A program made the translations under genes and the position numbers. This document shows positions 7,101 through 56,969 of a DNA stretch of 64,000 nt, piece by piece (positions within the stretch are counted from its first letter, which is position 1; each line of letters begins with the position of its first letter). Source of the stretch: a virus; UHGV virus genome UHGV-0073881; one strand, written 5' to 3'. The notes under the pieces were generated by a model that made no database searches, was not told the origin of the DNA, and worked only from the letters and a program-made list of their open reading frames with translations.

Positions 7101-7114
7101 TCGTAAATTTTACT

Positions 7115-7654: not shown

Positions 7655-7728
7655 TCATTACTCCTTATAAGCATCTTCCAAAATGTGTTTATTAATCATC
7701 TCTGCAATTGCATAACGAATACAGATAA

Positions 7729-9151: not shown

Positions 9152-9224
9152 TTTCTTTCCTCGCATATGAAAAAGGGAACTACCTTTCGATAGTTCCCAT
9201 GTTATACGTTTTTATGTATCACTG

Positions 9225-9827: not shown

Positions 9828-9828
9828 G

Positions 9829-11230: not shown

Positions 11231-11281
11231 AACTTTTCTCCATAGAAATAAAAAAGGCTCCCGAAGGAGCCTCTGAATATA

Positions 11282-11746: not shown

Positions 11747-12381
11747 TATTCACCTCCAACTGCATTAACGACAACTGTTGCGGTATTTGAAGTAACACTT
11801 CCACCAGCACCAGTTACAACACATGTGTAAGCTCCTGCATCATCAGCAGTTGTTGCATTTTCTTTAGTATACGTTGCAGATGTAGCAGAAGGGATGTTCA
11901 CATTGTCTTTCTTCCACTGATAGCCAGTAGCATTTGAGGCAACAACCTGTAGAGTCAGAGTATCACCTTCATTAACCGTCTGGTCAGTTGGTTGTGTAGT
12001 AATTGTTGGAGGAACTACAGCATCTTTCAACTTAGCATTCAGCATCGAGAAAGGTTTAACTCTTGCAAGCCATTCATAGTAAATGGTGTCAACATCTTTA
12101 CCATTGATAATTGCATATTGCAAATCCATGAAGAAGTCAGCAGTCCTCATCTGTGAGCCAATTGCATATAGCAACTCTTCATTAAATGGAACGTCATAGT
12201 CTGGAACGTATGTGAAGTTTGTCACTTCAGCAATATCAGCTTCAGGCCAAGGTGAACTGTATGTGAGTGGCAATACAGCAGCTTGGTAAGTTCTGAAGTC
12301 ATATCTTTTACCAGCTTTAACATTCGCAATAAAACCTTTCACGAATTCTTTAAAGTCTGGATATGTTTTTGCTTTAATCAT
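11746..12381 (-). CDS. hypothetical protein with C-terminal Ig-like domain; paralog of the next gene
   Basis: C-terminus TITTQPTDQTVNEGDTLTLQV...YTCVVTGAGGSVTSNTATVVV is Ig/I-set-like; N-terminal 120 aa resembles 12378-12746. Confidence 0.6.
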   Translation of the reverse strand: MIKAKTYPDFKEFVKGFIANVKAGKRYDFRTYQAAVLPLTYSSPWPEADIAEVTNFTYVPDYDVPFNEELLYAIGSQMRTADFFMDLQYAIINGKDVDTIYYEWLARVKPFSMLNAKLKDAVVPPTITTQPTDQTVNEGDTLTLQVVASNATGYQWKKDNVNIPSATSATYTKENATTADDAGAYTCVVTGAGGSVTSNTATVVVNAVGGE

Positions 12382-12746
12382 TTATTAGCCTCTAATCTAG
12401 CATTTAATCTAAAATAACCTCTGTGGTGAGGGGAAACATCACCAACCACAATACCACCAATCTTATAACCTTTCCCCATGACGTATTGAATATCCATTAA
12501 GAAAGTCCCAAGACCAACAATGTGAAACATTGGGTAAAGTAATTCTTCAGAATCTGGTAAGTCAATTACAGGGGTATAATTAAAGGTGTTTAGAGTGGGG
12601 TTGATATCTTCTTCAGGCCATTGGCTATCACGCCATGTTAAGGGTGTTGGAAGTACATCATCAAGATTATACCTTTCACCTTTTTGAACACTTTGAACAT
12701 AAGATTGTAGGAAGCAGTAAAAGTCCTTTCCACTCTTTGCTTTCAT
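12378..12746 (-). CDS. hypothetical protein, tandem paralog of 11746-12381 N-terminal domain
   Basis: shared pattern MxKAKxxxDF...KGxRYxxxxxxxxPLTxxxSxWPExDI...FxYxPxxDxPxxEELLY. Confidence 0.55.
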   Translation of the reverse strand: MKAKSGKDFYCFLQSYVQSVQKGERYNLDDVLPTPLTWRDSQWPEEDINPTLNTFNYTPVIDLPDSEELLYPMFHIVGLGTFLMDIQYVMGKGYKIGGIVVGDVSPHHRGYFRLNARLEANK

Positions 12747-12789
12747 TATCTTTCCTTAACAAAGAAAAGGGGCTTTCGCCCCAAATCAC

Positions 12790-13380
12790 TTAAGCCATAG
12801 TCTTAAGCATGTTTTTAAGTTTTTTGAGATTCATAGCCTCATCTAACTTAAATCCAAATCCATTGACATACTCAATGAAATCAGATTTCTTACTCAGAGA
12901 GAGTGCATAACTCATATCAAAGTCATTACTAGGAGTTGACTCTGGAGAAGTGTTCACATCGAAAGAAATCTCAGTGGCTGTTGACTCTTCCTCTCTCATG
13001 TTATCAATTACAACACACGTATAGTTGGCTGGAGAGAAGTTTGTTGAACCTTCCACATAGATATACTTTTCGTTGTGAATAAGGTTTGAGAATACCTTGA
13101 AGAAAGTTTCAGAATCGTGGCAGACGAGTTTAAATTCACTCTTTCCACCAAGAGCCATAAGTGAATATGGGTTTTCACCATCAATGTTGTAAGCAGGGTT
13201 CATACACTGAACTGTCACACGCATGAGGTTGTTTGCAATAGTCTTCTGTTTAAAAGAATTAGGAACGTAGTGCATACCTCTTGCACACTGATTAACTAAT
13301 TCCTTTAGAAGGTCATCGGAGTATGGCGAAGTGATAGATACAGACCCATCACCATTATAATTAAAACTTACATTTAACAT
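12790..13380 (-). CDS. hypothetical protein (196 aa)
   Basis: ORF track; ATG start. Confidence 0.55.
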   Translation of the reverse strand: MLNVSFNYNGDGSVSITSPYSDDLLKELVNQCARGMHYVPNSFKQKTIANNLMRVTVQCMNPAYNIDGENPYSLMALGGKSEFKLVCHDSETFFKVFSNLIHNEKYIYVEGSTNFSPANYTCVVIDNMREEESTATEISFDVNTSPESTPSNDFDMSYALSLSKKSDFIEYVNGFGFKLDEAMNLKKLKNMLKTMA

Positions 13381-16035: not shown

Positions 16036-16112
16036 CTCTGTTTAGCTCAGTTTGGTAGAGCGTTCCGTTTGGGGCGGTAAGGCCAGAGGTTCAAGTCCTC
16101 TAACAGAGACCA
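16036..16112 (+). tRNA. tRNA-Pro (anticodon TGG), isotype tentative
   Basis: acceptor CTCTGTT/AACAGAG, D-stem GCTC/GAGC, T-arm AGAGG-TTCAAGT-CCTCT, anticodon loop TTTGGGG, CCA encoded. Confidence 0.7.
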
Positions 16113-16119
16113 AATTAAT

Positions 16120-16194
16120 GTCGTAGAAGGCAAATGGTTAGCCACCTGACCTTCAATCAGTTGCTCGCGGGTTCGAATCCCGTCTACGACTCCA
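16120..16194 (+). tRNA. tRNA, anticodon TTC (Glu?), isotype uncertain
   Basis: acceptor GTCGTAG/CTACGAC, T-arm GCGGG-TTCGAAT-CCCGT, CCA encoded; anticodon loop CCTTCAA has C at position 33. Confidence 0.6.
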
Positions 16195-16200
16195 AATTTG

Positions 16201-16269
16201 ACAGAAGACCAAATACAGCAAACAACTTTTACTTTTCGCGCATAGAAAACATAAAAAGCTTGGTCTGGT
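16201..16269 (+). repeat. tRNA-array spacer module A (ACAGAAGACC ... ACAGCAA ... GGTCTGGT)
   Basis: conserved 5-prime ACAGAAGACC and 3-prime GGTCTGGT ends with AT-rich core; 4 copies in array. Confidence 0.6.
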
Positions 16270-16279
16270 CATTAAGAAT

Positions 16280-16356
16280 TGCGGGTATAGAGAAAGGGCG
16301 TCTCACATGTCTCATTAGCATGGTATCGGTAGGTTCGACTCCTGCACCCGCCTCCA
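16280..16356 (+). tRNA. tRNA-Met-like (anticodon CAT)
   Basis: acceptor TGCGGGT/ACCCGCC (1:72 mismatch), T-arm GTAGG-TTCGACT-CCTGC, loop CTCATTA, CCA encoded; weak D-stem. Confidence 0.6.
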
Positions 16357-16361
16357 AATTT

Positions 16362-16425
16362 ACAGAAGACCGTTTACAGCAATTCAAACAATTTTATCGG
16401 AAAATTAAAATGAATACGGTCTGGT
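16362..16425 (+). repeat. tRNA-array spacer module B
   Basis: ACAGAAGACCGTTTACAGCAA ... ACGGTCTGGT. Confidence 0.6.
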
Positions 16426-16437
16426 AATGTTAAACAT

Positions 16438-16514
16438 GGTTAGGAAGCACATAAGGCATGTGCGGTCGGCTGTTAACCGAATGGCACAGGGTTCGAATCC
16501 CTGACTAACCGCCA
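16438..16514 (+). tRNA. tRNA-Asn (anticodon GTT)
   Basis: acceptor GGTTAGG/ACTAACC, D-stem GCAC/GTGC, T-arm CAGGG-TTCGAAT-CCCTG, loop CTGTTAA, CCA encoded. Confidence 0.75.
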
Positions 16515-16524
16515 AAATTTAAAT

Positions 16525-16612
16525 GCGTCGTTATCCCGTAGATGGAAGCGGTGGTGACTGTAAATCACTTGTCATTACGACTCGGTAGGTTCGACTCCTT
16601 CACGGCGCACCA
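16525..16612 (+). tRNA. tRNA-Tyr (anticodon GTA), class II with long variable arm
   Basis: 88 nt; acceptor GCGTCGT/ACGGCGC, anticodon stem GGTGA/TCACT loop CTGTAAA, T-loop TTCGACT, CCA encoded. Confidence 0.7.
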
Positions 16613-16618
16613 AATAAA

Positions 16619-16696
16619 GGTTATGTAGTTTAATCTGGTTAAAATACCTCCCTGTCACGGAGGAAGATGTGGGTTCGAATCCCATCGTAACCGCCA
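16619..16696 (+). tRNA. tRNA-Asp (anticodon GTC)
   Basis: acceptor GGTTATG/CGTAACC, anticodon stem CCTCC/GGAGG loop CTGTCAC, T-arm GTGGG-TTCGAAT-CCCAT, CCA encoded. Confidence 0.75.
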
Positions 16697-16754
16697 ATTT
16701 TGAGAAGGGCTTTTTAGCCCCTCCCTTAAAGAGTTCTTGCGAGTATTCTTTAAA

Positions 16755-16835
16755 GGAGCAGAAGACCAAATTCAGCAAGCAACAAAAATATTTCAAGCCA
16801 ATTAATTTGAAAAATTTAAAACTTGGTCTGGTTCC
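16755..16835 (+). repeat. tRNA-array spacer module C
   Basis: GCAGAAGACCAAATTCAGCAA ... CTTGGTCTGGT. Confidence 0.55.
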
Positions 16836-16844
16836 AACAAATTT

Positions 16845-16969
16845 ACAGAAGACCGTTTACAGCAAGTTAAACAATCTAATTCTCTATGAAAGAAAGGGCG
16901 AAGGTTCGATTCCTTCACACGTTACGGCGTGTTGGTGTAATGGCAGCACTTAAGATGATACGGTCTGGT
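16845..16969 (+). repeat. tRNA-array spacer module D, carrying a tRNA-like T-arm and acceptor-like hairpin
   Basis: ACAGAAGACCGTTTACAGCAA ... GAAGG-TTCGATT-CCTTC (16900-16916), ACACG-TTACGG-CGTGT hairpin (16917-16932) ... ACGGTCTGGT; no full cloverleaf. Confidence 0.55.
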
Positions 16970-17118
16970 AATCCTCTTTGCAGTGACTTATGGAGCTAAT
17001 ATATCGTCCCATGAGTGCCGATGAATCTCTTGAGCATGATTCTAGATTAGCTTACTAAGAGATGACTCTACAAACCCTTTAGCAAGGTTTGCGTAGGTTA
17101 CTGCAAAGATGATTTAAT

Positions 17119-17194
17119 GGAAGTGTAGCAGAATGGTGATGCGGCAGACTTTTAATCTGACAGGCGATGGGTTCGAATCCCTCCACTTCTACCA
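17119..17194 (+). tRNA. tRNA-Lys (anticodon TTT)
   Basis: acceptor GGAAGTG/CACTTCT, anticodon loop CTTTTAA, T-loop TTCGAAT, CCA encoded. Confidence 0.7.
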
Positions 17195-17279
17195 AATTCG
17201 CCCTTAATTGAAGAATACCTACTTCGCGGCTGGAAACACCCACGAAAAATCAATTCTTCTCCAAAGGGCAACTTATTAC

Positions 17280-17356
17280 GGTTCAGTCGCAGATAAGGTA
17301 ATGCAAGGGTTTCATAAGCCCTATGAATGTGGGTTCGACTCCCATCTGAACCTCCA
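17280..17356 (+). tRNA. tRNA with anticodon CAT (Met or Ile2)
   Basis: acceptor GGTTCAG/CTGAACC, anticodon stem AGGGT/GCCCT loop TTCATAA, T-arm GTGGG-TTCGACT-CCCAT, CCA encoded. Confidence 0.75.
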
Positions 17357-17358
17357 AT

Positions 17359-17433
17359 TGTGGGTTAGCATAAATGGTAATGCAAACGGCTGATAACCGT
17401 TAGAAGAGGGTTCGATACCCTCACCTACAACCA
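17359..17433 (+). tRNA. tRNA-Ile (anticodon GAT)
   Basis: acceptor TGTGGGT/ACCTACA, D-stem GCA/TGC, anticodon stem AACGG/CCGTT loop CTGATAA, T-arm GAGGG-TTCGATA-CCCTC, CCA encoded. Confidence 0.75.
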
Positions 17434-17448
17434 ATTCCAATAAAGTTG

Positions 17449-17477
17449 TTGACATTAACATGTGACCACTTTATAGT
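17449..17477 (+). promoter_or_regulatory. strong sigma70-like promoter inside tRNA array (TTGACA-N17-TATAGT)
   Basis: -35 TTGACA 17449-17454, 17-nt spacer, -10 TATAGT 17472-17477; followed by about 320 nt with no ORF and no canonical tRNA. Confidence 0.55.
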
Positions 17478-17801
17478 AACTAAAATACTTCATAATATGT
17501 ATAATTCAAACACCAATACATGAGCGTTAGACGTAACACAATGTGGGGAAATTTGTTGTACATATTCTGAATAGTTTTCGTTAGTGTAGCGTCTATTTTG
17601 CAAACTTAAAAATAAATGCAAACGATAATGTTTTTCTGGCAGTAGCTTAATAGGCTAAACACCAGTGAGGTCTTCCAATCCCTCATCAAAGAATTTGGCG
17701 TACTAGCCCACGGTATGATTAATAAAGTGGGCGACATTCTAAAGGGTATCCCTTATGGGGCTTGGCTTAAATGCAATGAGTACCCTTTAAAATGTTAATT
17801 A

Positions 17802-17883
17802 CGGGGCGTATCTCAGCGGTCTTCTAAACCGCCGTTAACCGAGTAAGTGGAGTATGCGGGTTCGAGTCCTGCCGCCTCGACCA
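17802..17883 (+). tRNA. atypical tRNA-like gene (Arg TCT-like anticodon arm), possible pseudogene
   Basis: acceptor CGGGGCG/CGCCTCG, T-arm GCGGG-TTCGAGT-CCTGC, CCA encoded; stem GCGGT/ACCGC with loop CTTCTAA but no canonical D-arm and a 23-nt segment before the T-arm. Confidence 0.4.
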
Positions 17884-17898
17884 ATTTTGGATGAAATC

Positions 17899-18246
17899 AT
17901 GAAGACTTGTATTAGGTGCAAACTTAGCAAGGATGAAAATGATTTCTACATGAAAGATGGTAGGAGAACTCATTCATACTGTAAAAAGTGTGTTAATGAG
18001 CAAACCATAGAAAGACAAAGAGCACTTAAACTTTCAGCTGTTGAGTACAAAGGTGGGGTTTGTCATGATTGTGGTAAAAGGTATCATCCAGCAGTGTATG
18101 ACTTCCATCATTTGAATCCTTCAGAGAAAGATTTTAACATTGGTCATAGAAAAAGTCTTAAGTTCTCTCAGGAGCTAAAGAACGAACTTGACAAATGTGT
18201 TTTGCTATGTTCAAATTGCCATAGGGTAAGACATGCAAAGTATTAG
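17899..18246 (+). CDS. HNH endonuclease (zinc-finger plus HNH) embedded in tRNA array
   Basis: CxxC...CxxC and FHHLNPSEKD...LLCSNCHRVRH motifs; ORF track 17854 start lies inside the tRNA, so start moved to ATG 17899. Confidence 0.8.
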   Translation: MKTCIRCKLSKDENDFYMKDGRRTHSYCKKCVNEQTIERQRALKLSAVEYKGGVCHDCGKRYHPAVYDFHHLNPSEKDFNIGHRKSLKFSQELKNELDKCVLLCSNCHRVRHAKY

Positions 18247-18383
18247 TTAGCAGATTGCTTAGACGACCTTAACGGGTCTCCTGTAAGGAGGTGGTCTGTA
18301 TCTCATGTTTCCAGAGCATGTAAAAATATTCTGAGAAGGGGCTTTACAGTGTTGTGATAATACGGTAAGCTTCGAATTATAAT

Positions 18384-18466
18384 ATGGGACGATGTTAAGA
18401 CTCTAAGGCATGAGCAACGGCTTCCAACACCGTTTCAAAGGGGTTCAACTCCTCCGTCCCATGCCA
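18384..18466 (+). tRNA. tRNA, possibly Trp (anticodon CCA); atypical
   Basis: acceptor ATGGGAC/GTCCCAT, T-loop TTCAACT, CCA encoded; stem AACGG/CCGTT around TTCCAAC; extra nucleotides between acceptor and D region. Confidence 0.45.
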
Positions 18467-18478
18467 AAGTCTTATTAG

Positions 18479-18567
18479 GGGTAGGTAGCGGCTAATGGTA
18501 GCCAAACTGTCTTGAAAACAGTTGCCACTGTAGAGATACGGTGAGGGTTCGACTCCTTTACTTACCG
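18479..18567 (+). tRNA. tRNA-Ser (anticodon TGA), class II
   Basis: acceptor GGTAGGT/ACTTACC, D-stem GGC/GCC, anticodon stem ACTGT/ACAGT loop CTTGAAA, long variable arm, T-loop TTCGACT; CCA not encoded. Confidence 0.7.
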
Positions 18568-18817
18568 CCTAATAAGATTTAAAGCCGCGCTTCGTTCGGA
18601 TGTTGCGTTAGGTTTCACTTCGTGTATTGTCGTACACGATGTTGAGAAAGCACCTAGTAGGTGTCACGGAGAAGAGATAGCATCAAGCTCTCCAAAGGTT
18701 CTAGTCACCGGATTAAACAAGACTATGCAAAGACTGATTAGGTCTTTTTAGATAACTTCTGAGGCAAACTATACCATTGTTGCTTTGGGTCTTGGAAGTT
18801 CTCTACAAAGATTTAAT

Positions 18818-18894
18818 GCACCTATAGCCCAATTGGAAGAGGCAGCAGACTTAGAATCTGTTCAGTGTGAGTTCGACTCTCTCTAGGTGTACCA
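18818..18894 (+). tRNA. tRNA with anticodon TAG (Leu-type anticodon, class I length)
   Basis: acceptor GCACCTA/TAGGTGT, D-arm CCCAATTGGAAGAGG, anticodon stem GCAGA/TCTGT loop CTTAGAA, T-loop TTCGACT, CCA encoded. Confidence 0.6.
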
Positions 18895-18901
18895 AATTAA
18901 T

Positions 18902-18977
18902 GCAGGTGTAGCAAAATGGTTATGCGGCTGACTCTTAATCAGTAAGACGATGGGTTCAATTCCCTCCACCTGTACCA
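18902..18977 (+). tRNA. tRNA with anticodon CTT (Lys?)
   Basis: acceptor GCAGGTG/CACCTGT, anticodon stem GCTGA/TCAGT loop CTCTTAA, T-loop TTCAATT, CCA encoded. Confidence 0.6.
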
Positions 18978-18983
18978 AACATT

Positions 18984-19059
18984 GGGGATGTAGTTTACAT
19001 GGTTAAAACATAAGTTTTGCAAACTTAAGTACAGGGTTCAATTCCATGCTTCTCCACCA
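18984..19059 (+). tRNA. tRNA-Ala (anticodon TGC)
   Basis: acceptor GGGGATG/CTTCTCC with G3:U70 identity pair, anticodon stem TAAGT/ACTTA loop TTTGCAA, T-loop TTCAATT, CCA encoded. Confidence 0.75.
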
Positions 19060-19065
19060 ATTAGT

Positions 19066-19140
19066 GCATCCATAGTTTAAACGGGAAAATTACAGTCTTC
19101 CAAACTGAGGTTGAGGGTTCGATTCCCTCTGGATGCTCCA
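19066..19140 (+). tRNA. tRNA-Gly (anticodon TCC)
   Basis: acceptor GCATCCA/TGGATGC, T-arm GAGGG-TTCGATT-CCCTC, anticodon loop CTTCCAA, CCA encoded. Confidence 0.75.
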
Positions 19141-19146
19141 ATTCAT

Positions 19147-19222
19147 GCTCCTATCGTATAACTGGCTATTACGGTTGTCTTGTAAGCAACTTATCAGGGT
19201 TCGAATCCTTGTGGGAGCACCA
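19147..19222 (+). tRNA. tRNA-Thr (anticodon TGT)
   Basis: acceptor GCTCCTA/TGGGAGC, D-stem CGTA/TACG, anticodon stem GTTGT/GCAAC loop CTTGTAA, T-arm CAGGG-TTCGAAT-CCTTG, CCA encoded. Confidence 0.7.
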
Positions 19223-19316
19223 ATTTGAGGTCAAGTGAAAGACCGCTTGAGTCAACTGAAGACCGTAACAAATTCCACGGAGTTGAGTTAGCGGCACAAC
19301 TTCAGACCTCTTTAAA

Positions 19317-19391
19317 GCTCGCTTAGTTTATATGGTAAAGCCCCATCCTTACAAGTTGGTGAAGAAGGTTCAAGTCCTTCAGCGAGTACCA
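19317..19391 (+). tRNA. tRNA-Val (anticodon TAC)
   Basis: acceptor GCTCGCT/AGCGAGT, T-arm GAAGG-TTCAAGT-CCTTC, anticodon loop CTTACAA, CCA encoded. Confidence 0.7.
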
Positions 19392-19392
19392 A

Positions 19393-19470
19393 GTTCCAGT
19401 ATCCCAATTGGCAGAGGATGCAAGCTCAAACCTTGTATTAGTGACGGTTCGAATCCGTCTTGGAACACCA
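19393..19470 (+). tRNA. tRNA with anticodon CAA (Leu-type anticodon, class I length)
   Basis: acceptor GTTCCAG/TTGGAAC, D-stem ATCC/GGAT with loop CAATTGGCAGA, anticodon stem GCAAG/CTTGT loop CTCAAAC, T-arm GACGG-TTCGAAT-CCGTC, CCA encoded. Confidence 0.65.
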
Positions 19471-19487
19471 AATTTTAGGAGATTCCT

Positions 19488-19700
19488 ATGAAGCCTTATG
19501 GTAGACACGGTAAAGTTGAAATTGCAAGTTGTGGTTGCTGTGCTTCTCACGATGGTGAAGAAGATTACTACAAGTGGCGTACAGACCATCGTAGACGCTT
19601 TCTCAGAAGAGATAAGAAGAAAGCTAGACAGGAATCTCGAAAAGATATTGCAGAATTAGTTCAAATGGATAGAGCAGCAACCTACGAAGTTGTTAGTTAG
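19488..19700 (+). CDS. hypothetical small basic protein (70 aa); 3-prime end overlaps tRNA-Arg
   Basis: ORF track; RBS AGGAG 7 nt before ATG; last 50 nt overlap the tRNA at 19650. Confidence 0.35.
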   Translation: MKPYGRHGKVEIASCGCCASHDGEEDYYKWRTDHRRRFLRRDKKKARQESRKDIAELVQMDRAATYEVVS

Positions 19701-19723
19701 GGGTTCGAATCCCTTATTCTGCA
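19650..19723 (+). tRNA. tRNA-Arg (anticodon ACG)
   Basis: acceptor GCAGAAT/ATTCTGC, D-stem GTTC/GAGC, anticodon stem GCAAC/GTTGT loop CTACGAA, T-arm AGGGG-TTCGAAT-CCCTT; CCA not encoded. Confidence 0.75.
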
Positions 19724-19744
19724 CAAATTTTAGAAGGTAATTAT

Positions 19745-19972
19745 ATGCGTAAACTCATTATTGAAAGGCATAAAGATGCTGACAAGATTGAAACAACACA
19801 AGTTGGGGACACTGACTTCATTCTTGTAGGTTGGAAATGTGACCCAATAGCAGCTATGAAGGTTGTTCATGGTTTTGCAGGAATTGAATTTAATCAAATC
19901 ATATTTGAAACGCTATTACCAGAAAATCAGGATACGTGTAATAACGCATATATCCTGACAAGAGTTCGTTAG
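19745..19972 (+). CDS. hypothetical protein (75 aa) between tRNA genes
   Basis: ORF track; ATG start; stop abuts tRNA-Gln. Confidence 0.4.
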   Translation: MRKLIIERHKDADKIETTQVGDTDFILVGWKCDPIAAMKVVHGFAGIEFNQIIFETLLPENQDTCNNAYILTRVR

Positions 19973-20046
19973 GGGATTAGTTTACAAGGTTAAAACCTCG
20001 GTCTTTGAAATCGAAGAAGTTGGTTCAATTCCAACATCCCCCGCCA
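19971..20046 (+). tRNA. tRNA-Gln (anticodon TTG)
   Basis: acceptor AGGGGAT/ATCCCCC (1:72 mismatch), anticodon stem TCGGT/ATCGA loop CTTTGAA, T-arm GTTGG-TTCAATT-CCAAC, CCA encoded. Confidence 0.7.
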
Positions 20047-20048
20047 AT

Positions 20049-20127
20049 GCTCCATTACTCCAATTGGCAGAGAGGCCAGACTTAAAATCTGTGTTATGTA
20101 TCGGTTCGAATCCGATATGGAGTACCA
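20049..20127 (+). tRNA. tRNA with anticodon TAA (Leu-type anticodon, class I length)
   Basis: acceptor GCTCCAT/ATGGAGT, D-arm CCAATTGGCAGAG, anticodon loop CTTAAAA, T-arm ATCGG-TTCGAAT-CCGAT, CCA encoded. Confidence 0.65.
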
Positions 20128-20133
20128 AATATT

Positions 20134-20209
20134 AGCAGTGTAGCATAACTGGCAATGCTCCAGCCTCTGAAGCTGAAAGATTAAGGTTCAAATCCTTACA
20201 CTGCTGCCA
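20134..20209 (+). tRNA. tRNA with anticodon CTG (Gln)
   Basis: acceptor AGCAGTG/CACTGCT, D-stem GCAT/ATGC, anticodon loop CTCTGAA, T-arm TTAAG-GTTCAAAT-CCTTA, CCA encoded. Confidence 0.65.
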
Positions 20210-20240
20210 CTTCTAAGGGTTCTTACGAGAGTCCTTAAAT

Positions 20241-20317
20241 GTGGCCTTATCATAAATGGATAATGACCCATGCTGTGAACATGGTCTATACGGGTTCGAT
20301 TCCCGTAGGTCACCCCA
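20241..20317 (+). tRNA. tRNA-His (anticodon GTG)
   Basis: acceptor GTGGCCT/AGGTCAC with C73, D-stem TCAT/ATGA, anticodon stem CCATG/CATGG loop CTGTGAA, T-arm ACGGG-TTCGATT-CCCGT, CCA encoded. Confidence 0.75.
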
Positions 20318-20324
20318 ATTTTAA

Positions 20325-20401
20325 TAGCTCAATTAGCTTATATGGTTAAAGCGCGTGTCTGAAAAACATGAGAACAGGGTTCAAATCCCGATGGGCTACC
20401 A
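20325..20401 (+). tRNA. tRNA-Phe (anticodon GAA), irregular acceptor/D junction
   Basis: anticodon stem CGTGT/ACATG loop CTGAAAA, D-stem GCTT/AAGC, acceptor TAGCTCA/TGGGCTA, T-loop TTCAAAT, CCA at 20399-20401. Confidence 0.6.
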
Positions 20402-20417
20402 ACTTTATAGGTGCATA

Positions 20418-21152
20418 ATGAAAGAGATGACAGGACAAGGTAAAGAGATTTTCAATCTCCTTAAATCCGGTAACGGGTTCTCTAACCCTCTTATTACTGG
20501 TGCAGCAGTTCTTGGTGGTACAGTTGCTGCTTCTCAGTCATTAATCACTTCAATTAGTTCTGTATCAGACCCAGCTACCCAGCAAATCCTTATTGCTGCT
20601 GGCTTGACAACTGCCTTACTAAGCAGCTTTACAACAAGCCTTGGTAGCACCACTTCAACGACAACTACTTTAACTGACTATGGACAGAAGTCTGTAGATG
20701 AGTTTTCACAGCGTATGCAGGTAGCCAAAGGATACTCTAATGTTATGGGAGCAGCGGGTGAACAAGTTGGATGTACACCGTTTAGTGGAATCATGGGAGT
20801 TGCTACTGAATACGGTAACAAGGCTATGGATTTGATTAACACCTCCATAGATGCCGTAAACAGCGTTCTAAGCGACTTACAGGATGCAATTGATAAAGGA
20901 CTAGCAACCATCTCTGACCTCGCTACACAAGCTGTTACAGCGATTAATGAAGGTATGGCAAAGATTACTGCCTACGCTAATGAAGTGGCTCAGATGATTG
21001 CAGACGAAGCAGCAATGATTGCAGAGTATCTAAAAACCAATATTAATGGTTTCCTTGCAAATGTTTTACCAGATTGGTTTAACGATGATTGTAAGACGGG
21101 TGTAATTGATACAATTGCAACTCCAGAGATGAAAGAAGCTCTAAACAAATAA
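20418..21152 (+). CDS. hypothetical Ala/Ser/Thr-rich protein embedded in tRNA operon (about 244 aa)
   Basis: ORF track 20355-21152; start moved to first ATG after tRNA-Phe (MKEMTGQ) with AGGTG RBS. Confidence 0.6.
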   Translation: MKEMTGQGKEIFNLLKSGNGFSNPLITGAAVLGGTVAASQSLITSISSVSDPATQQILIAAGLTTALLSSFTTSLGSTTSTTTTLTDYGQKSVDEFSQRMQVAKGYSNVMGAAGEQVGCTPFSGIMGVATEYGNKAMDLINTSIDAVNSVLSDLQDAIDKGLATISDLATQAVTAINEGMAKITAYANEVAQMIADEAAMIAEYLKTNINGFLANVLPDWFNDDCKTGVIDTIATPEMKEALNK

Positions 21153-21155
21153 TTT

Positions 21156-21248
21156 GGAAGATTAACCCTAAAAGGTAAGGGAGCAGTTTGCTAAACTGCC
21201 AGTAGCTGAGAAATTGGTGTACCAGTTCAAGTCTGGTATCTTCCTCCA
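21156..21248 (+). tRNA. tRNA-Ser (anticodon GCT), class II
   Basis: 93 nt; acceptor GGAAGAT/ATCTTCC, D-stem CCC/GGG, anticodon stem GCAGT/ACTGC loop TTGCTAA, long variable arm, T-arm ACCAG-TTCAAGT-CTGGT, CCA encoded. Confidence 0.75.
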
Positions 21249-21254
21249 AATTTT

Positions 21255-21330
21255 GCATTGGTGTCAGAAATGGATATGTACCTGTCTGCAAAACAGGTTT
21301 ATGAGGGTTCGAGTCCCTTCCAATGCTCCA
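21255..21330 (+). tRNA. tRNA-Cys (anticodon GCA)
   Basis: acceptor GCATTGG/CCAATGC, anticodon stem CCTGT/ACAGG loop CTGCAAA, T-arm GAGGG-TTCGAGT-CCCTT, CCA encoded. Confidence 0.8.
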
Positions 21331-44750: not shown

Positions 44751-44945
44751 ATGCCAACTATCCTAGCAATCCTCTTAAAAAACCTTGGGGCATTCTTCTG
44801 GAAGCTTGCACTTTCTCTTCTAAGTGAATACATGATTGAAAAAGCATTCTTCAGACTTGCAAGATACCTTGCGAGTAAGACTGATACGCCTATCGACGAT
44901 GAATTTGTAGATAACTTGGAAAAAGCTTTTAAAGGTGAGAAATAA
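44751..44945 (+). CDS. hypothetical small protein (64 aa), possible membrane protein
   Basis: ORF track; hydrophobic N-terminal half. Confidence 0.45.
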   Translation: MPTILAILLKNLGAFFWKLALSLLSEYMIEKAFFRLARYLASKTDTPIDDEFVDNLEKAFKGEK

Positions 44946-45319
44946 TGAAGTGGTTAGAAGATGCTTTCAAGAATAATATCGGTGCAATTGTTGTAGGTAT
45001 TTTCAGTGTAATTGGGATGTACACTACAATGCAGGTCTCTGACGGAAAGCAAGAAGTTTCTATCAACACAAAGTTACAACAGTTGGATAGTTACTCAAAA
45101 GGTAACTATTCATCTATTCGTGATTTGCAGTCTGATATGAGACTTCTTCAGTTAGGTATGGAGAACCAGAAGGTACAGCTAGAGAACGTTAAGGGGGAAA
45201 ACGCTAAGTTGACCAAAACCCTTGATAAATTCTCAGATAGTGTGAACAACTTAGCACAGTCTGTATCAGCTTTACAAGCAATTACCGAACAAAATACACA
45301 AAGCACTAAGAAAAAATAA
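44945..45319 (+). CDS. hypothetical protein with N-terminal transmembrane helix and coiled-coil C-terminus (124 aa)
   Basis: IGAIVVGIFSVIGMYTTM hydrophobic segment, then Q/L-rich heptad-like region. Confidence 0.5.
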   Translation: MKWLEDAFKNNIGAIVVGIFSVIGMYTTMQVSDGKQEVSINTKLQQLDSYSKGNYSSIRDLQSDMRLLQLGMENQKVQLENVKGENAKLTKTLDKFSDSVNNLAQSVSALQAITEQNTQSTKKK

Positions 45320-50128: not shown

Positions 50129-50734
<606 letters not shown>

Positions 50735-51021
50735 TTAGTTGATTGTTAAGTTGTTTGTAAAGAACCCTCAACAGAAGACTCTTTAGAAACTTGGTAGATT
50801 TTTAACGTGGCTACTACCATCCACCCATATCATACCAAACCTGACCAAATCTTACCGCACCCAACATCGCCTAACCTTACCACACCTCATTAAAAGACCC
50901 TGTTTAAAGACCTTTTAAAAAGGTAAGTCTCATTTTAATGTAGCTGAGACTAACTACCCATACTAAACCTCACCGCACCTCACCGAGCCGCGCATTACCA
51001 AACCAGACCAAACCTTGCCTC

Positions 51022-51062
51022 ACATCACTTAAAAATCCTCTTAGAAGACTCTTAAGTGATGC
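51022..51062. promoter_or_regulatory. second copy of palindrome (ACATCACTTAA-N19-TTAAGTGATGC)
   Basis: 10 of 11 arm positions paired; same loop as 49487-49527. Confidence 0.45.
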
Positions 51063-51125
51063 TGGTGAGTACCCGTTGGTTTATGCTGCTTAGTATACTC
51101 ACCAAATTTTCTAGGTCAACAACTT

Positions 51126-52229
51126 TTATTCATAGTCTCGAATAACTAACCCAACAGGGAACTGTAAAGACCCCTTGCGAGTCATCTTCTGGAACTGAAC
51201 CGTTAAAGGTTTCCCGATAAACTCTTCAGGGTGTTCAGCAAGATACTGTTTCTTCTCATGGGTAGTTTTCCATGAAACATCTACAAAGACATTTGGAAGT
51301 GTCTCTACAACAAACTTACCATGACCCCGCTTATCGGTCTTCACACCAGTAATTTTAAACTCCTCTGTGTGCATCTTCTTATGTTTAATCAGGAAGTATG
51401 AACGGTGACCACACTCATAGAAGGACTCTGGAGAGATTGAGCGGTACATTGCACCTTCAAACTTAGCTTCAACCCACTTATCATGAGCTTCATCAAACTC
51501 TTCCCAAGAATTTACACGACGAGATTTAACAGGGACAACTCTACAGCCATCTCTAAAGTCATTCAATGGTGAAGTCTCAATAATACTTCTACGCTCAGGC
51601 CATGTCTTAGTGCTGTCACAGATATCATACCAGTAAAACTTGAGTAAATGTCGGTCAGGATTGTCTTCATTTTTAATCATGGAGACAATATCTTCTAAGT
51701 CCAACCCATGAGCATAGATTTCACCATCAAATTCATCAACGTCTTTATGGAGCCTCAACATTGCCATAATGTCAGGTATTAGCTCAGTAGGAATTTTATA
51801 AATAGTGTTCTCACGAGAATATGCTGTAAATACACTGCCAATACTTAAGTGTCTTGAAATCCTACAACGTACACCATCCAGTTTTGGTTGAGCATCAGCA
51901 GGAAATTTCAGATACTTTGCATGACTAACCTTTGCAGCATCATGAGCAAGCTGTACACCTACCTTCTCAGTATTCTGTGCAGACTCTTTTGTGTAAGCGT
52001 AACCTTTACGGTCTACTTGTTTCTTGTACTTAGCAGAAACTTCAAAGAGAGCTTGCTGTTCAGCATTACGCTCATTCTTTTTACCGATGTTCTTAGGCTC
52101 TGCTGTGTACTCTTCAAACATCATCTTGCCATTTTCTTTACCGTAGGTTGTAACCACCTTATCACCTACAGCAACACACGACCAAACGTTAAAAGAGCCA
52201 TCTTTATTTTGTTTGTACAGAATTGTCAT
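51126..52229 (-). CDS. ATP-dependent DNA ligase (putative)
   Basis: nucleotidyltransferase motif I KLDGVR (QPKLDGVRCRI); 367 aa, similar in size to T7-type ligases. Confidence 0.7.
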   Translation of the reverse strand: MTILYKQNKDGSFNVWSCVAVGDKVVTTYGKENGKMMFEEYTAEPKNIGKKNERNAEQQALFEVSAKYKKQVDRKGYAYTKESAQNTEKVGVQLAHDAAKVSHAKYLKFPADAQPKLDGVRCRISRHLSIGSVFTAYSRENTIYKIPTELIPDIMAMLRLHKDVDEFDGEIYAHGLDLEDIVSMIKNEDNPDRHLLKFYWYDICDSTKTWPERRSIIETSPLNDFRDGCRVVPVKSRRVNSWEEFDEAHDKWVEAKFEGAMYRSISPESFYECGHRSYFLIKHKKMHTEEFKITGVKTDKRGHGKFVVETLPNVFVDVSWKTTHEKKQYLAEHPEEFIGKPLTVQFQKMTRKGSLQFPVGLVIRDYE

Positions 52230-52483
52230 TTTCTCTTACCACCAATCTCTACGTCGATAACTTGAGTGTCTCCACAAACATCAAACTTGTGAATGACATT
52301 TTCTACAGTGTAAGTCCAACCATCAATCCTTACCCACTCACCTTCTCGTGGTACGATAGGGTTACGTTGGGCAACTGTAGTAGTTGAGTGTATAACGTCA
52401 TATAGGTGAATAAAGTTTACCAGTACTTGCATCTTAATATCCTTCGTCAATAACGGTGATGTGTTGAGTGCTTGACTTACCAT
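52226..52483 (-). CDS. hypothetical protein (85 aa)
   Basis: ORF track. Confidence 0.45.
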   Translation of the reverse strand: MVSQALNTSPLLTKDIKMQVLVNFIHLYDVIHSTTTVAQRNPIVPREGEWVRIDGWTYTVENVIHKFDVCGDTQVIDVEIGGKRK

Positions 52484-52679
52484 ACCTGTAAGAAGTTGTT
52501 GTCTGTGAATTTGGGCAACGGACTACTATTAAGTCATATTTAAATGTTGACCAATTAAGTTTGTATATTGAACAATCTCTCATCTCTGGAGGTAACTCAT
52601 AGCTACTGTCTTGTTTGTCATAACTTGGGTTACAGCCAGTTAGAAAAAGCACTCCAAGTGCAATGATTGTTTTCCACAT
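52434..52679 (-). CDS. putative lipoprotein (81 aa)
   Basis: N-terminus MWKTIIALGVLFLTGCNP with lipobox LTGC. Confidence 0.5.
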   Translation of the reverse strand: MWKTIIALGVLFLTGCNPSYDKQDSSYELPPEMRDCSIYKLNWSTFKYDLIVVRCPNSQTTTSYRYGKSSTQHITVIDEGY

Positions 52680-52900
52680 AGTTGATTTCCTTTTTCACAG
52701 TTTTCTTCGTAACCTTCTTGGACGGTCTTGTAAAGTTCCTTGAAAGTTTCTTCTTTCACTGGCTCTACAGACTTTGTTTTACACAAGTCCAAGTACCATT
52801 GATAGTCTAACCCACGACACCATGCTTCAGACACAAAAGAAATCTGAGGGTTTATGTTTCGGATTATTGCTAAACCAGCTTCTTCTTTACTGCTCATCAA
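52640..52900 (-). CDS. hypothetical protein (86 aa)
   Basis: ORF track; overlaps lipoprotein ORF start region. Confidence 0.4.
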   Translation of the reverse strand: MMSSKEEAGLAIIRNINPQISFVSEAWCRGLDYQWYLDLCKTKSVEPVKEETFKELYKTVQEGYEENCEKGNQLCGKQSLHLECFF

Positions 52901-53026: not shown

Positions 53027-53230
53027 TCACTGTAAAATGCTCCATCCAGTTTTCTGCCAATCACACCCACGATACCATGTAGCCATTGGGTAACCCATTT
53101 CACAGACAATCTTCCCATCTTTCATTTCGAAGAACTCATCAGATGTGAAATTTTCATTACGTACTTTGTGACCACTCTTCATGGCTTCAATAGCTTCTTC
53201 ATAAGTCATTTTGATTTCTCCAATACTCAA
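53027..53230 (-). CDS. hypothetical protein (67 aa)
   Basis: ORF track. Confidence 0.45.
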   Translation of the reverse strand: MSIGEIKMTYEEAIEAMKSGHKVRNENFTSDEFFEMKDGKIVCEMGYPMATWYRGCDWQKTGWSILQ

Positions 53231-53490: not shown

Positions 53491-54003
53491 TCAACTTAGT
53501 TTTGCAAACTCTCCGTGGAGTTTCATAGCAGCTTCACAGTAAGCTTCATGGGCTTCTTCAGGGGTGTCATACATCCCAAGATGATAATTCTTACCTTGTA
53601 AACGAATCATTGCCCTAAACCTTTTCCCTATCTTCTGTACACCTTTTGGTAAACCTGATATGGACTTTCTAGACCGATTGCAAGAGTTTTGTGAAGCCGT
53701 ACAAACCCTCAAATTCAAATACCTATTATCCCAACCATCACAATTCTTGTGGTCAACCTGTAAGGTTTTATCAGGTAGGTATCCATCCATATACAAGATA
53801 ACTAAACGATTTGCTTGGTAACTCCTTCCATCAATCAGCAATTGGACAGACTTGTGACCATCAGTGTTTGTTCTGTAGTTTCCAGCCCTCTTACCTCCAA
53901 ATCTAGAGTTAAAGTTTGCATTACCTTCTCTAAATTTCCAAGTAAAGACCCCTGTATCGGGGTCGTACTCTAAAAGCTCCTTTAAACGAATTTCTGTAAT
54001 CAT
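53491..54003 (-). CDS. HNH homing endonuclease (NUMOD4-like N-terminus, HNH, AP2-like C-terminus)
   Basis: LKELLEYDPDTGVFTW, VDHKNCDGWDNRYLNLRVCTASQN, GVQKIGKRFRAMIRLQGKNYHLGMYDTPEEAHEAY; start moved from TTG 54042 to ATG 54003. Confidence 0.85.
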   Translation of the reverse strand: MITEIRLKELLEYDPDTGVFTWKFREGNANFNSRFGGKRAGNYRTNTDGHKSVQLLIDGRSYQANRLVILYMDGYLPDKTLQVDHKNCDGWDNRYLNLRVCTASQNSCNRSRKSISGLPKGVQKIGKRFRAMIRLQGKNYHLGMYDTPEEAHEAYCEAAMKLHGEFAKLS

Positions 54004-54013
54004 TTCAACACCA

Positions 54014-56713
54014 TCAATGTACTTCCAACCAGCTCTTACCAACCTTACCAGTACCTGTAACCATAGTTTCTTTTCTTAGACCAAGGTTTTTAGAAGCCTG
54101 CCCGTACATCCAGTCAGTGATAGCTTTAACCTCTTGAGTCATACTTTCTGGACATTCCCAACTATTTTCATCGTGATATGCCAGAAGAAGTCTAGCTCCA
54201 ATAGCTGGCTTACGTCCATTCAGCTTCATCAACCCTTCATCATAGGCTCTACGACATGCAAGGTTAATTGCTTCATTCTGTACTTGACTTTCTGAACCCA
54301 TCAAAAGGTAATTTAACAGCTTGTGTGGAGACTTACACCATAACCAAGCTCCAGCAACCTTTACAAAACCCCCTTTAGAGATTGCAGCAGTCTTACCAAA
54401 GACCTCTTCAAGAGCCTTCTTAGTCGCTTTAAAGTCAGCTTCTAAGTTATCAATCAGTTTCTTAATCTTCGGCAAACGAACGAAGTAAGTCTGTTTAGTC
54501 AATGCACCCTCCTGAGTAGTTGCTGCTTTAATGGTCTTAGCAAACTTCTCATCCCCTGCACCAAACAGCAGTGCATAGATGCCATTCTTAGCTTTCTTAC
54601 GACCTTTACTGATTTCGTGAAGAAGATTTTCATCCTGAGTCATACGACAAGTCAAGATATCCTGCTCATCATTCAAGCTGAAGTAGATACTGTTCAGTGT
54701 GTGAGCATCAGTGCCTGAGTAAACTACGTACAAGTCGTTTTCAGAGTCATAACGCAGATACTTGTCAACCTCTGGATTCAGGTATTCGTCAAAGTGTTTG
54801 CAGTAGTAGCGACCATCTTCTTGACGAACAAATTCAATCTCTTCTTTACCTTCGGTTACCGCTTTGGTGAACTCTTTATCACCCATAAAGTTACACAGTA
54901 AAACAAGCTGTGCAGAGTTCATATCCACAGAGACTACGTTGGTTCCCTTCTCACAAATCCAAACTGCCCTCATTGGTTCACCATAAACAGCAGCACCGGA
55001 AGGTACGTTTACAATACCATACTGTGTCATACGTCCAGTGGATGTACCAAACACCATTGCACCAGCACTTAAACGACCATCTGGACGAATCTGATTCAAC
55101 CAACCTTTCTCATCATCCTTTGAGTTCTCAATAGTTCTGCGTCGGTGCATCAAAGTATAGTACTTCGCAATCTTCTGCCCAAGTTCACCTTCGATAGTGT
55201 CATAAGAAGATTCAGTCAGTTTTGGTGAAGTACGAATCAAGCAAGGTTCAAGAACATCTGTGTATTTCTTCACAGACCAATTATGCTCGATGTACTGTAC
55301 CCCTTCATGCTCAACGTAGTTTAAACCACAACGTTCAACCATTTCATCCCACTTAGGATGTTTACGAATCATCTTCTTATTATCTTTGAAGCGACAAACC
55401 TTAACAGGACGACCATCTGAGTCTTTCTTGTAGTTCCAATCATCAGGAATCCAACCAACAGATTTCAGATACTCTTTAACTACTGCAACCTGAGTCATGC
55501 GTGAAACTTCAAACTCAATCGGTGTATATGGTGCATCAATCAAACCCGTGTAACGACTTGACTCAAGTTCAAAGTGATTAACAACATGATTGTTGTAGTA
55601 CTTGACAATCTTAACAGTTTTAACTGGCTTCCAATCTTTGCACTTCTTGTCAACCTTCGCATTTAGCTCATTACATACTGCACGAGCATCTTTCATTGCC
55701 ACGAAACCTTCTTTGTACTCTTCTCCGGTTACCGTGTTAGTTGGTGTGTAGCAGTTACGTTTCTCTACGCTGAAAATCTTGGTAGTTGGTTTACCAAATG
55801 GCTTAATAGGATAACTTTGCATTTCCCCATTACGAACCTGCTGACGATACTTTGTCTTAGGATACTTGGTAATACGTTTCAAACCATCTGCTTCACCAAA
55901 AGTTTCAACATACTCATTCCAAGCTTTTGCAAATTCTTCACCAGTAACTTTCCCTTTTGTCTTGATAGTTGGTGGTAAGAATGGCTCAACCTCTGAAGCA
56001 AGGTCAGCAGTCATCTTATCAAGTTCTTTAACACAACTCTTCATCATGTTAATGTCAGCTTTCCAACCATTGATAGCTTGCTGGCTCATCCAGAAAGATG
56101 TTTCTTTAGCTCGCATGTAGGTTTCGTAGGTATCCACACCACACTTCTTCAGCTTCACATACTCATTATCAAGAGCACGTTTAGTTTTGGCGTTGATTCG
56201 AATATCTTCAACAACACGAGTTAAGATTTCAGCGTTCCAAACTCCCCACTCTTCAATCTCAGGCTTACGGACACCAACACGAGCACCCCATGCAGCCAAA
56301 CCATGAGAACCCTTGTAACCTTTCGGTGTAGGTCTATCCATCCACTGAACACGAGATTGGATAAGTGAATCTTGGAAGAAATTACTCCAAGGCTTACATT
56401 TAGGGTTATCAAAGTTCCACAGGTCAGGTGCAATGTGGTTGAACACCCACCAGTCATAACCAAGACCGTTGTGAATGCAAAGACGTTTCGCCTTTAAAGC
56501 AAACTCAACACCCTCTCTTAAGCCACCCTTGATATACTTGGTGTACTTGTGACCAAGAATAGGCTCATCAGTGAATACCCACACAGGTGGTTCATCACTG
56601 TCATCTTTGTAATCTGCAAAAGCCATTACGTGAGCTTTAGTGAACTCAAGCAGCAATCCGTCAGTTTCTGTATCGCCTACCAGATGCAAATTTTTAAAGT
56701 CTACGTTTTCCAT
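54014..56713 (-). CDS. DNA polymerase, family A with 3-5 exonuclease domain
   Basis: exo motif HLVGDTETDGL, polymerase motif B-like KNGIYALLFGAGDEKF and motif C YHDE; start at ATG 56713 (MENVDF) with GAGGGAG RBS. Confidence 0.9.
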   Translation of the reverse strand: MENVDFKNLHLVGDTETDGLLLEFTKAHVMAFADYKDDSDEPPVWVFTDEPILGHKYTKYIKGGLREGVEFALKAKRLCIHNGLGYDWWVFNHIAPDLWNFDNPKCKPWSNFFQDSLIQSRVQWMDRPTPKGYKGSHGLAAWGARVGVRKPEIEEWGVWNAEILTRVVEDIRINAKTKRALDNEYVKLKKCGVDTYETYMRAKETSFWMSQQAINGWKADINMMKSCVKELDKMTADLASEVEPFLPPTIKTKGKVTGEEFAKAWNEYVETFGEADGLKRITKYPKTKYRQQVRNGEMQSYPIKPFGKPTTKIFSVEKRNCYTPTNTVTGEEYKEGFVAMKDARAVCNELNAKVDKKCKDWKPVKTVKIVKYYNNHVVNHFELESSRYTGLIDAPYTPIEFEVSRMTQVAVVKEYLKSVGWIPDDWNYKKDSDGRPVKVCRFKDNKKMIRKHPKWDEMVERCGLNYVEHEGVQYIEHNWSVKKYTDVLEPCLIRTSPKLTESSYDTIEGELGQKIAKYYTLMHRRRTIENSKDDEKGWLNQIRPDGRLSAGAMVFGTSTGRMTQYGIVNVPSGAAVYGEPMRAVWICEKGTNVVSVDMNSAQLVLLCNFMGDKEFTKAVTEGKEEIEFVRQEDGRYYCKHFDEYLNPEVDKYLRYDSENDLYVVYSGTDAHTLNSIYFSLNDEQDILTCRMTQDENLLHEISKGRKKAKNGIYALLFGAGDEKFAKTIKAATTQEGALTKQTYFVRLPKIKKLIDNLEADFKATKKALEEVFGKTAAISKGGFVKVAGAWLWCKSPHKLLNYLLMGSESQVQNEAINLACRRAYDEGLMKLNGRKPAIGARLLLAYHDENSWECPESMTQEVKAITDWMYGQASKNLGLRKETMVTGTGKVGKSWLEVH

Positions 56714-56969
56714 TTTCACTCCCTCTCAAACATATGACTCCATACCTTACTGCAAAACGACACAAAAAGCAAGTTGACAAATAACTTGACAGGGTGTTAG
56801 TCTTGTATGCAGTGGGTTTTAACTTAAAAGACTCCCTTTACAGATTAACTATACAGATTCTTTAAAACCCTTAAAAGATTTTAATAGCTTTTAAAAAGCT
56901 TTAAAGTATTACGTATAGAATACGTAAAGAAAGAGATTAAGACTTAATAGAAACTATAAAGAGGCTGCC

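Follow-up and report, generated by a model that had tools for sequence, protein, structure and literature searches.

What is a small lipoprotein gene doing among the replication genes of a Felix O1-like bacteriophage? The question is raised by an open reading frame (ORF) of 81 codons at 52434..52679, minus strand, in a stretch of 64,000 nucleotides from UHGV virus genome UHGV-0073881, which was analysed as a whole and is referred to here as the window. The original prediction, made from the sequence alone, had proposed a small lipoprotein acting as a candidate superinfection-exclusion or receptor-masking factor. We find that the ORF is a true gene of a virulent phage of the Felix O1 type, that its product is an accessory protein with no genetically linked partner, and that this product belongs to the family catalogued as DUF4884 and PHROG 902. 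As for its function, we give a probability of about 35% to the reading, drawn by analogy, that the lipoprotein would be a stoichiometric binder in the cell envelope that confers exclusion in a broad sense.

Results

The ORF encodes a predicted lipoprotein precursor

The coding sequence is complete and sits exactly where it had been placed, with its ATG at 52679-52677 and its TAA at 52436-52434 on the minus strand. No alternative in-frame start is found upstream of this ATG, and direct reading of the sequence reveals a ribosome binding site (RBS) in the form of the Shine-Dalgarno sequence AAGGAA (52687..52692, minus strand), 8 nt upstream of it. Some metagenomic Felix-like contigs carry gene calls of 124 amino acids (aa), in which an upstream ORF is in frame with the lipoprotein. 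These longer forms look like gene-calling artefacts, the conserved start being the internal Met that precedes the signal peptide.

The precursor reads MWKTIIALGVLFLTGC followed by NPSYDKQDSSYELPPEMRDCSIYKLNWSTFKYDLIVVRCPNSQTTTSYRYGKSSTQHITVIDEGY. Residues 1-15 (52635..52679, minus strand) are predicted to form a signal peptide made up of an n-region (MWK), an h-region (TIIALGVLF) and then L-T-G, while the lipobox L13-T14-G15-C16 (52632..52643, minus strand) fits the pattern [LVI][ASTVI][GAS]C. Cys16 is the predicted lipid-attachment residue and the predicted N-terminus of the mature protein. The signal peptide and LTGC lipobox of the original prediction are thus upheld: their layout is canonical, this ORF alone passes a lipoprotein-signal filter applied to the ORFs of the 64 kb window, and Cys16 does not vary in any of 12 close or 150 diverse sequences. 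A Pfam scan of these 150 family members returned the generic lipid-attachment-site model only (LPAM_1, matched by 28 of them). With a canonical signal and a conserved lipobox cysteine, the protein has the sequence features of a lipoprotein substrate of Lgt and LspA. In E. coli, sorting by the Lol pathway depends on the residue at +2 after the lipidated cysteine. At this position the present protein has Asn, and only 12% of the family have Asp; by the E. coli rule, sorting of this lipoprotein to the outer membrane is predicted.

The gene is conserved under purifying selection

The lipoprotein signal by itself is only modestly improbable. We estimated its chance occurrence from mononucleotide shuffles of the window, in which ORFs of at least 60 aa that pass the lipoprotein-signal filter were counted; 0.075 such ORFs are expected per shuffled window, which amounts to p ~0.07 for the motif alone. 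Given this value, the reality of the gene rests on its conservation more than on its motif. Across 23 Felix-like orthologues, the ratio of nonsynonymous to synonymous substitution rates (dN/dS) is 0.14, not far from the values of the ligase gene (0.10) and the polymerase gene (0.07). The dS is higher than that of the flanking ligase gene (1.0 as against 0.5), in keeping with a stand-alone accessory module. A search of the same 23 orthologues for gene-wide positive selection found purifying selection instead. Orthologues are annotated as genes in KPS64 (gp42), Moogle (gp40) and Henu11 (gp3), always as hypothetical, and identity is 96% to Henu11 gp3 and 74% to the Moogle orthologue. The ORF at 52434-52679 is therefore confirmed as a real conserved gene under purifying selection. 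One residue of this copy stands out, namely Trp at position 43 (52551-52553), where at least 90% of the close relatives, Henu11 included, have Gly; it lies in the variable hairpin tip described below.

Membership of DUF4884 and anatomy of the mature protein

The lipoprotein matches PHROG 902 over residues 1-76 (E = 5.2e-16), and the precomputed tag PF16225 (DUF4884) is attached, with no mark of weakness, to the Moogle orthologue and to more than 120 distant homologues. When the lipoprotein and 150 relatives were scanned locally against Pfam-A (hmmscan), PF16225 was absent from the results up to a threshold of E <= 10, perhaps because that copy of Pfam-A does not contain the model; membership of DUF4884 rests here on the precomputed annotations together with the PHROG match. 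Members of DUF4884 are about 75-100 aa long and have the lipobox and the motifs DC...RCPNS in common. The present lipoprotein is no different in kind from the rest of the family, to which both catalogues give no function. Scans of the lipoprotein and its neighbours against Pfam-A, NCBIfam and PADLOC returned nothing meaningful, and a sub-threshold match to the InsA zinc ribbon was dismissed as a product of the cysteine spacing.

The mature domain (residues 17-81; 52437..52631, minus strand) begins with a tether of about 19 residues, after which a beta domain of five strands is predicted. In the 150 diverse sequences, no more than three columns are invariant, namely Cys16, Cys36 (codon 52572..52574, in the motif LPxE[LM]xDC) and Cys55 (codon 52515..52517, in the motif VVRCPNSxT), the latter two codons likewise on the minus strand. 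The two later cysteines are flanked by the near-invariant positions P30, L33, D35, V52, R54, P56, S58, T60, G67 and K68, so that the family motifs can be written as LPxELxDC, VVRCPNSxT and GK. The lipid cysteine is separated from Cys36 by 19 +/- 1 residues in most members, and Cys36 from Cys55 by 15-22 residues across the family. Between the latter two lies a hypervariable hairpin tip (residues 42-49; 52533..52556, minus strand), with column entropies above 2.9 bits, which differs between members in both sequence and length; no other part of the protein varies as much, either family-wide or among the Felix-like orthologues.

In 94% of 242 members, the mature part has an even number of cysteines (mostly two, sometimes four), the signature of disulfides in an exported protein. 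Cys55 is the predicted disulfide partner of Cys36, and on the structural model the bond would lie at the base of the beta2-beta3 hairpin. This model was obtained with AlphaFold2 from the 150-sequence alignment and reaches a predicted local distance difference test score (pLDDT) of 64.8, with strands at residues 19-22, 37-42, 49-54, 60-66 and 69-75; with 12 sequences the pLDDT is 54.5. A fold search of the model against the PDB gave no match among those listed, Llp of phage T5 included, which at a pLDDT of only 65 is weak evidence. When the PDB sequences were searched with the family profile, signal peptides alone were matched.

The family is found mainly in virulent phages

When 1.84 billion cluster representatives (50% identity) were searched with a profile, 697 matched at E <= 1e-3, including 129 at E <= 1e-10. 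The best 150 of the 697 are 61-137 residues long, nearly all of them aligned over almost their whole length. Among 50,697 phage records searched in translation, 590 have a member of the family. These cover the Ounavirinae; about 295 Vibrio phage records, of which the one inspected belongs to the Demerecviridae (T5-like); Certrevirus (Vequintavirinae; rV5-like) together with further phages of about 150 kb (4MG, for example); Asteriusvirus and Erwinia jumbo phages; one Aeromonas Plateaulakevirus; and Acinetobacter phages. To these, a search of viral models by structure adds the T4-like Aeromonas phages Aeh1 and phiAS5, and the published gene table of the T1-like phage Henu8 lists a DUF4884 protein by annotation. 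The core motifs thus recur in phages of Enterobacteria, Vibrio, Aeromonas, Acinetobacter and Erwinia. The name DUF4884 is also attached to BT_3183 of Bacteroides thetaiotaomicron, as a label in the literature.

Cellular genomes, one per species for 185,579 species of bacteria and archaea, were scanned for the strict motif VVRCPNSxT[ST]. A single relative, that of Hylemonella gracilis, was found, a lower bound set by the strictness of the motif, and the same motif occurs at 37 loci in viral contigs. Within the limit of this strict-motif scan, the family appears to reside mainly in virulent phages. The Hylemonella relative lies at 7956-8234 of NZ_AEGR01000062, where the neighbours were examined from 4226 to 13274. 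It is located downstream of a gene for a ComM-type (Mg-chelatase-like) ATPase and beside two genes with the ABC-3C-system domain CTD10 and the domain DUF2326, and the locus looks like an integrated island with defence-type genes.

Across 22 diverse loci, neither a recurrent neighbour family nor a consistent membrane-protein neighbour was found. The DUF4884 gene of jumbo and T4-like phages is separated by no more than a few genes from those of other small lipoproteins or proteins with secretory signals, as at 3504-3755 and 4117-4392 in the locus of Escherichia phage G17 and at 4652-4927 and 6265-6576 in a second locus (L031). Such phages may thus encode exported accessory proteins in local clusters.

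Comparison with known phage lipoproteins and exclusion proteins

One of the closest known counterparts is T5 Llp, a 61-residue outer-membrane lipoprotein with one intramolecular disulfide that works from the periplasmic side (PMC9586334). Like Llp (PDB 8A60, 7QJF), the present protein is a small lipoprotein of a virulent phage, with a mature part of 65 residues as against 61, a predicted outer-membrane anchor facing the periplasm and a predicted intramolecular disulfide. This is a resemblance only. The mature part shows no sequence similarity to that of Llp: the family profile matches 8a60_B at residues 1-18 with E = 2.7 (hmmsearch), and hhalign aligns 19 columns, every one of which falls inside the signal peptide. 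The two also differ in genetic context and in the receptor of the phage. The genes for Llp and for Cor, which is about 20% identical to Llp, adjoin the gene for the receptor-binding protein, and the target of their products is a TonB-dependent transporter (PMC9586334), FhuA in the case of Llp. In contrast, the DUF4884 gene of the window is not beside a receptor-binding protein or tail-fibre gene, and Felix O1-type phages are reported to recognise lipopolysaccharide (LPS) and to use no protein receptor (PMC8594841). The premise of the original prediction, that phage lipoproteins in non-structural regions often block the receptor, sits badly with the placement of these known cases.

Cor, as found in T1, phi80, N15 and HK022, was compared by description, and likewise is a small outer-membrane lipoprotein with a disulfide. 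The T1-like phage Henu8 is annotated with both a Cor exclusion protein and the DUF4884 protein; hence, if the annotation holds, the two are probably not redundant. Furthermore, Cor is common in temperate phages, unlike the DUF4884 family, with its count of at least one among the species genomes scanned for the strict motif.

T4 Spackle (Sp) is a small secreted periplasmic protein made early by a virulent myovirus; it is helical, is not a lipoprotein, and blocks the superinfecting phage at the envelope while leaving the receptor untouched. The present protein is likewise a small secreted protein of a virulent myovirus, predicted to be periplasmic and probably made early, and an exclusion mechanism of this type is the one favoured here. 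No relation to Spackle in sequence or fold was detected in the PDB searches.

Small size and an outer-membrane lipid anchor are also traits of o-spanins such as lambda Rz1 and Moogle gp121. Felix O1-like phages are reported to possess an inner-membrane and an outer-membrane spanin, and their lysis genes are scattered rather than clustered (PMC4319497). In Moogle, gp122 and gp121 form an overlapped i-/o-spanin pair near the polynucleotide kinase and rIIB genes, gp122 having an N-terminal transmembrane (TM) segment and gp121 the lipobox LISGC. By synteny, the corresponding region would lie about 2 kb past the left edge of the window. Unlike the o-spanins, the present gene has no adjacent, overlapping or embedded i-spanin gene, and the sequences are unrelated. 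A role as a spanin subunit was rejected in view of the separate spanin pair of the relatives and the lack of a linked membrane partner, and a unimolecular spanin of the T1 gp11 type was ruled out by the C-terminus (...HITVIDEGY), which is hydrophilic and has no TM segment.

Gene neighbourhood and side observations on the window

A region of 6.8 kb around the lipoprotein gene matches 266 phage records at 80-95% nucleotide identity in a nucleotide search. All 266 are Felix O1-like myoviruses (Ounavirinae), and the top matches are Mooglevirus-type phages of Shigella, Salmonella and Citrobacter. The gene order of the window is that of Citrobacter phage Moogle with the orientation reversed: the plus strand carries structural genes, while the minus strand carries the DNA polymerase gene (54014-56719), a run of small genes and the ATP-dependent DNA ligase gene (51126-52229). 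The lipoprotein gene lies between the polymerase and ligase genes, as it does in KPS64, Moogle and Henu11, and was rightly assigned to a replication block. In other phages, the homologue is placed among unrelated small genes.

On the upstream side, an 86-aa gene (52640..52900, minus strand; PHROG 9065) overlaps the start of the lipoprotein gene by 40 nt with its 3' end, and an identical 40-nt overlap joins the corresponding genes in Moogle (gp39/gp40). On the downstream side, the ATG of a 68-aa gene (52226..52432, minus strand; PHROG 4427) begins 1 nt past the lipoprotein stop codon, and the RBS of this gene sits in the final lipoprotein codons. Given the overlap at the 5' end and the 1-nt spacing at the 3' end, the lipoprotein gene is embedded in an operon. 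Neither flanking gene encodes a TM segment. The 86-aa gene was rejected as a conserved partner, since it accompanies the lipoprotein gene in only 4 of the 23 Felix-like loci; most Felix-like phages have the lipoprotein gene without it.

SUSP1, a phage of the same subfamily, has neither the lipoprotein gene nor the 86-aa gene, although the neighbours on both sides are kept at 82-96% identity and include the downstream 68-aa gene. Relative to the SUSP1 locus (3240-3250), the lipoprotein and 86-aa genes (52434-52900, minus strand) act as an insertion/deletion cassette. The lipoprotein gene is thus dispensable in the subfamily. For the same reason, the published genome-wide knock-down screen of SUSP1 (CRISPRi-ART) is uninformative about the lipoprotein.

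Several other features of the window were noted. Two genes upstream of the lipoprotein gene, a 67-aa protein is encoded at 53027-53230 (minus strand; PHROG 3474), with a SUSP1 homologue that is 82% identical. It has a sub-threshold Pfam match to Tad2-like proteins (Thoeris anti-defence 2; E = 2e-4, 22.2 bits versus a cut-off of 25) and, on this sequence match, could be a relative of the anti-Thoeris sponge. An HNH-AP2 homing endonuclease gene (53491-54042, minus strand) shares 29 nt with the 3' end of the DNA polymerase gene. Given its patchy occurrence, in KPS64 and SUSP1 and not at the corresponding position in Moogle, it is a mobile insertion. Between the ligase gene and the following minus-strand operon there is a non-coding gap of about 390 nt (50732-51125), and no sequence in the region matches a sigma-70-like promoter better than one within this gap (TTGACC-16-TATACT, 51119-51092, minus strand); the gaps at the equivalent position in Moogle and KPS64 are somewhat longer, at about 560-575 nt. 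The window also has a cluster of 23 tRNA genes (16036-21327, plus strand), a feature of other Felix O1-like phages as well. A putative holin (44945-45319, plus strand) and endolysin (11282-11746, minus strand) correspond by synteny and matching length to Moogle gp54 and gp91, respectively. The lysis genes are scattered, with the spanin pair falling outside the window.

Discussion

How might such a protein act? We propose that Sec would export the precursor, that Lgt and LspA would lipidate and cleave it at Cys16, and that the product would be anchored in the outer membrane so as to face the periplasm, where the tether of about 19 residues would hold the beta domain of about 45 residues, stapled by the Cys36-Cys55 disulfide. 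Given that the folded part is only about 45 residues, the protein is probably a binder rather than an enzyme and would act by stoichiometric binding, not by catalysis. The conserved face around the disulfide, formed by LPxELxDC, VVRCPNSxT and GK, may bind a common component of the Gram-negative envelope or a common feature of the incoming phage, with the variable hairpin tip tuning specificity; the pairing of a variable tip with a core conserved across hosts points to a scaffold for recognising a common target. Infected cells would thereby acquire an altered envelope that hinders secondary infection, genome entry or other envelope-borne competitors. Such exclusion would take place at the envelope in the manner of T4 Spackle, with the phage's own LPS receptor left unmasked. 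A role in competition is favoured because the gene is dispensable, mobile and mainly found in virulent phages. An exclusion-type role is our leading guess, by elimination and by analogy, with Llp (outer membrane, disulfide, periplasmic side) and with the ABC-3C neighbourhood in Hylemonella as the points of comparison.

Several points weigh against this proposal. Neither homology nor a listed fold match links the sequence to Llp or to any characterised exclusion protein, and at a pLDDT of 65 the model makes the lack of a fold match weak evidence. Literature searches on DUF4884 turned up annotation tables and no characterised member. Conservation of the core could mean folding and not a binding face, the +2 sorting rule is that of E. 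coli and Asp occurs at this position in some members, and the link to a defence island is based on the single locus of Hylemonella. In addition, the data agree as well with a role in the phage's own cycle, be it the timing of lysis or protection against host factors in the periplasm. A bolder version of the exclusion reading, which we consider rather unlikely, would make DUF4884 a third class of exclusion lipoproteins beside Llp and Cor, unrelated to them in sequence, independent of the receptor, and blocking the genome entry of competitors from the inner face of the outer membrane. These lipoproteins may target a component that is conserved in Proteobacteria at large, or else some conserved tail part of the incoming phages. 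Such a class would explain why one small gene is traded among T1-, T4-, T5-, Felix- and rV5-like phages and jumbo phages.

Nearly as likely as exclusion, though doubtful like it, is that the protein serves the phage in a single infection by taking over the host envelope. Its target would be a conserved host factor of the periplasm or outer membrane, such as a nuclease, protease, lipoprotein sensor of envelope stress, or Tol-Pal or TonB component; by binding and neutralising this factor, it would raise the yield and not exclude competitors. The anatomy fits this equally well, the protein being predicted to be exported and disulfide-bonded, too small for an enzyme, and conserved in its core across hosts. 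The family is nearly confined to large virulent phages, and the gene is co-transcribed with replication genes, hence likely made before the late genes. Nevertheless, SUSP1 does without it, no candidate target emerged from the analysis, and Pfam, NCBIfam and PADLOC hold no match to known periplasmic inhibitors. Very unlikely, by comparison, is the masking of the phage's own receptor in the manner of Llp or Cor, which would prevent re-adsorption and the loss of progeny on cell debris. Size, outer-membrane signal and cysteine pair do recall Llp and Cor, and one jumbo-phage homologue is labelled 'lytic conversion lipoprotein', an annotation given without evidence. However, as Felix O1-type phages use LPS, a one-to-one masking such as that of FhuA by Llp has no obvious target. 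The gene is also remote from tail-fibre and receptor-binding protein genes, the profile matches Llp in the signal peptide only, the model of moderate confidence has no listed fold match, and a DUF4884 protein coexists with Cor in the Henu8 annotation. Moreover, a core that is common to Enterobacteria, Vibrio, Aeromonas and Acinetobacter phages with unrelated receptors is not tailored to one receptor. Of the original prediction, the small lipoprotein therefore stands, while receptor masking is disfavoured on account of the LPS receptor, the position of the gene and the lack of homology to Llp.

A function in lysis, as an o-spanin subunit or as a lipoprotein that assists or regulates the disruption of the outer membrane, is just as improbable as receptor masking. 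Small phage lipoproteins of the outer membrane are mostly o-spanins, and the lysis genes of Felix O1-like phages do not form one cluster (PMC4319497). Against this, the relatives have their canonical spanin pair elsewhere, and annotators specialising in lysis kept Moogle gp40 as hypothetical. No TM segment is found in the flanking genes or at the C-terminus of the protein itself, and no conserved TM neighbour emerges across the 22 loci; the predicted product is a folded beta domain with an intramolecular cysteine pair; and SUSP1 does not have the gene. As for a chance ORF with a signal-like N-terminus in place of a functional gene, the modest improbability of the motif leaves some room for it, and yet its likelihood is negligible in view of the purifying selection, the RBS and translational coupling to both neighbours, and the hundreds of full-length homologues with invariant cysteine positions.

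Taken together, the lipoprotein is a new orthologue in an already catalogued family and not a discovery by itself. The family is nonetheless worth keeping in view, as one of the few exported proteins common to very different virulent phages of Gram-negative bacteria, and as one that is dispensable and mobile with a strongly conserved core. Felix O1-like phages are in wide use against both Salmonella and E. coli. If the protein does exclude phages or neutralise a conserved envelope factor, this would bear on the design of phage cocktails, and the family would indicate where the envelope has a conserved vulnerability. As the protein is small and easily expressed, the question is a cheap one to test.

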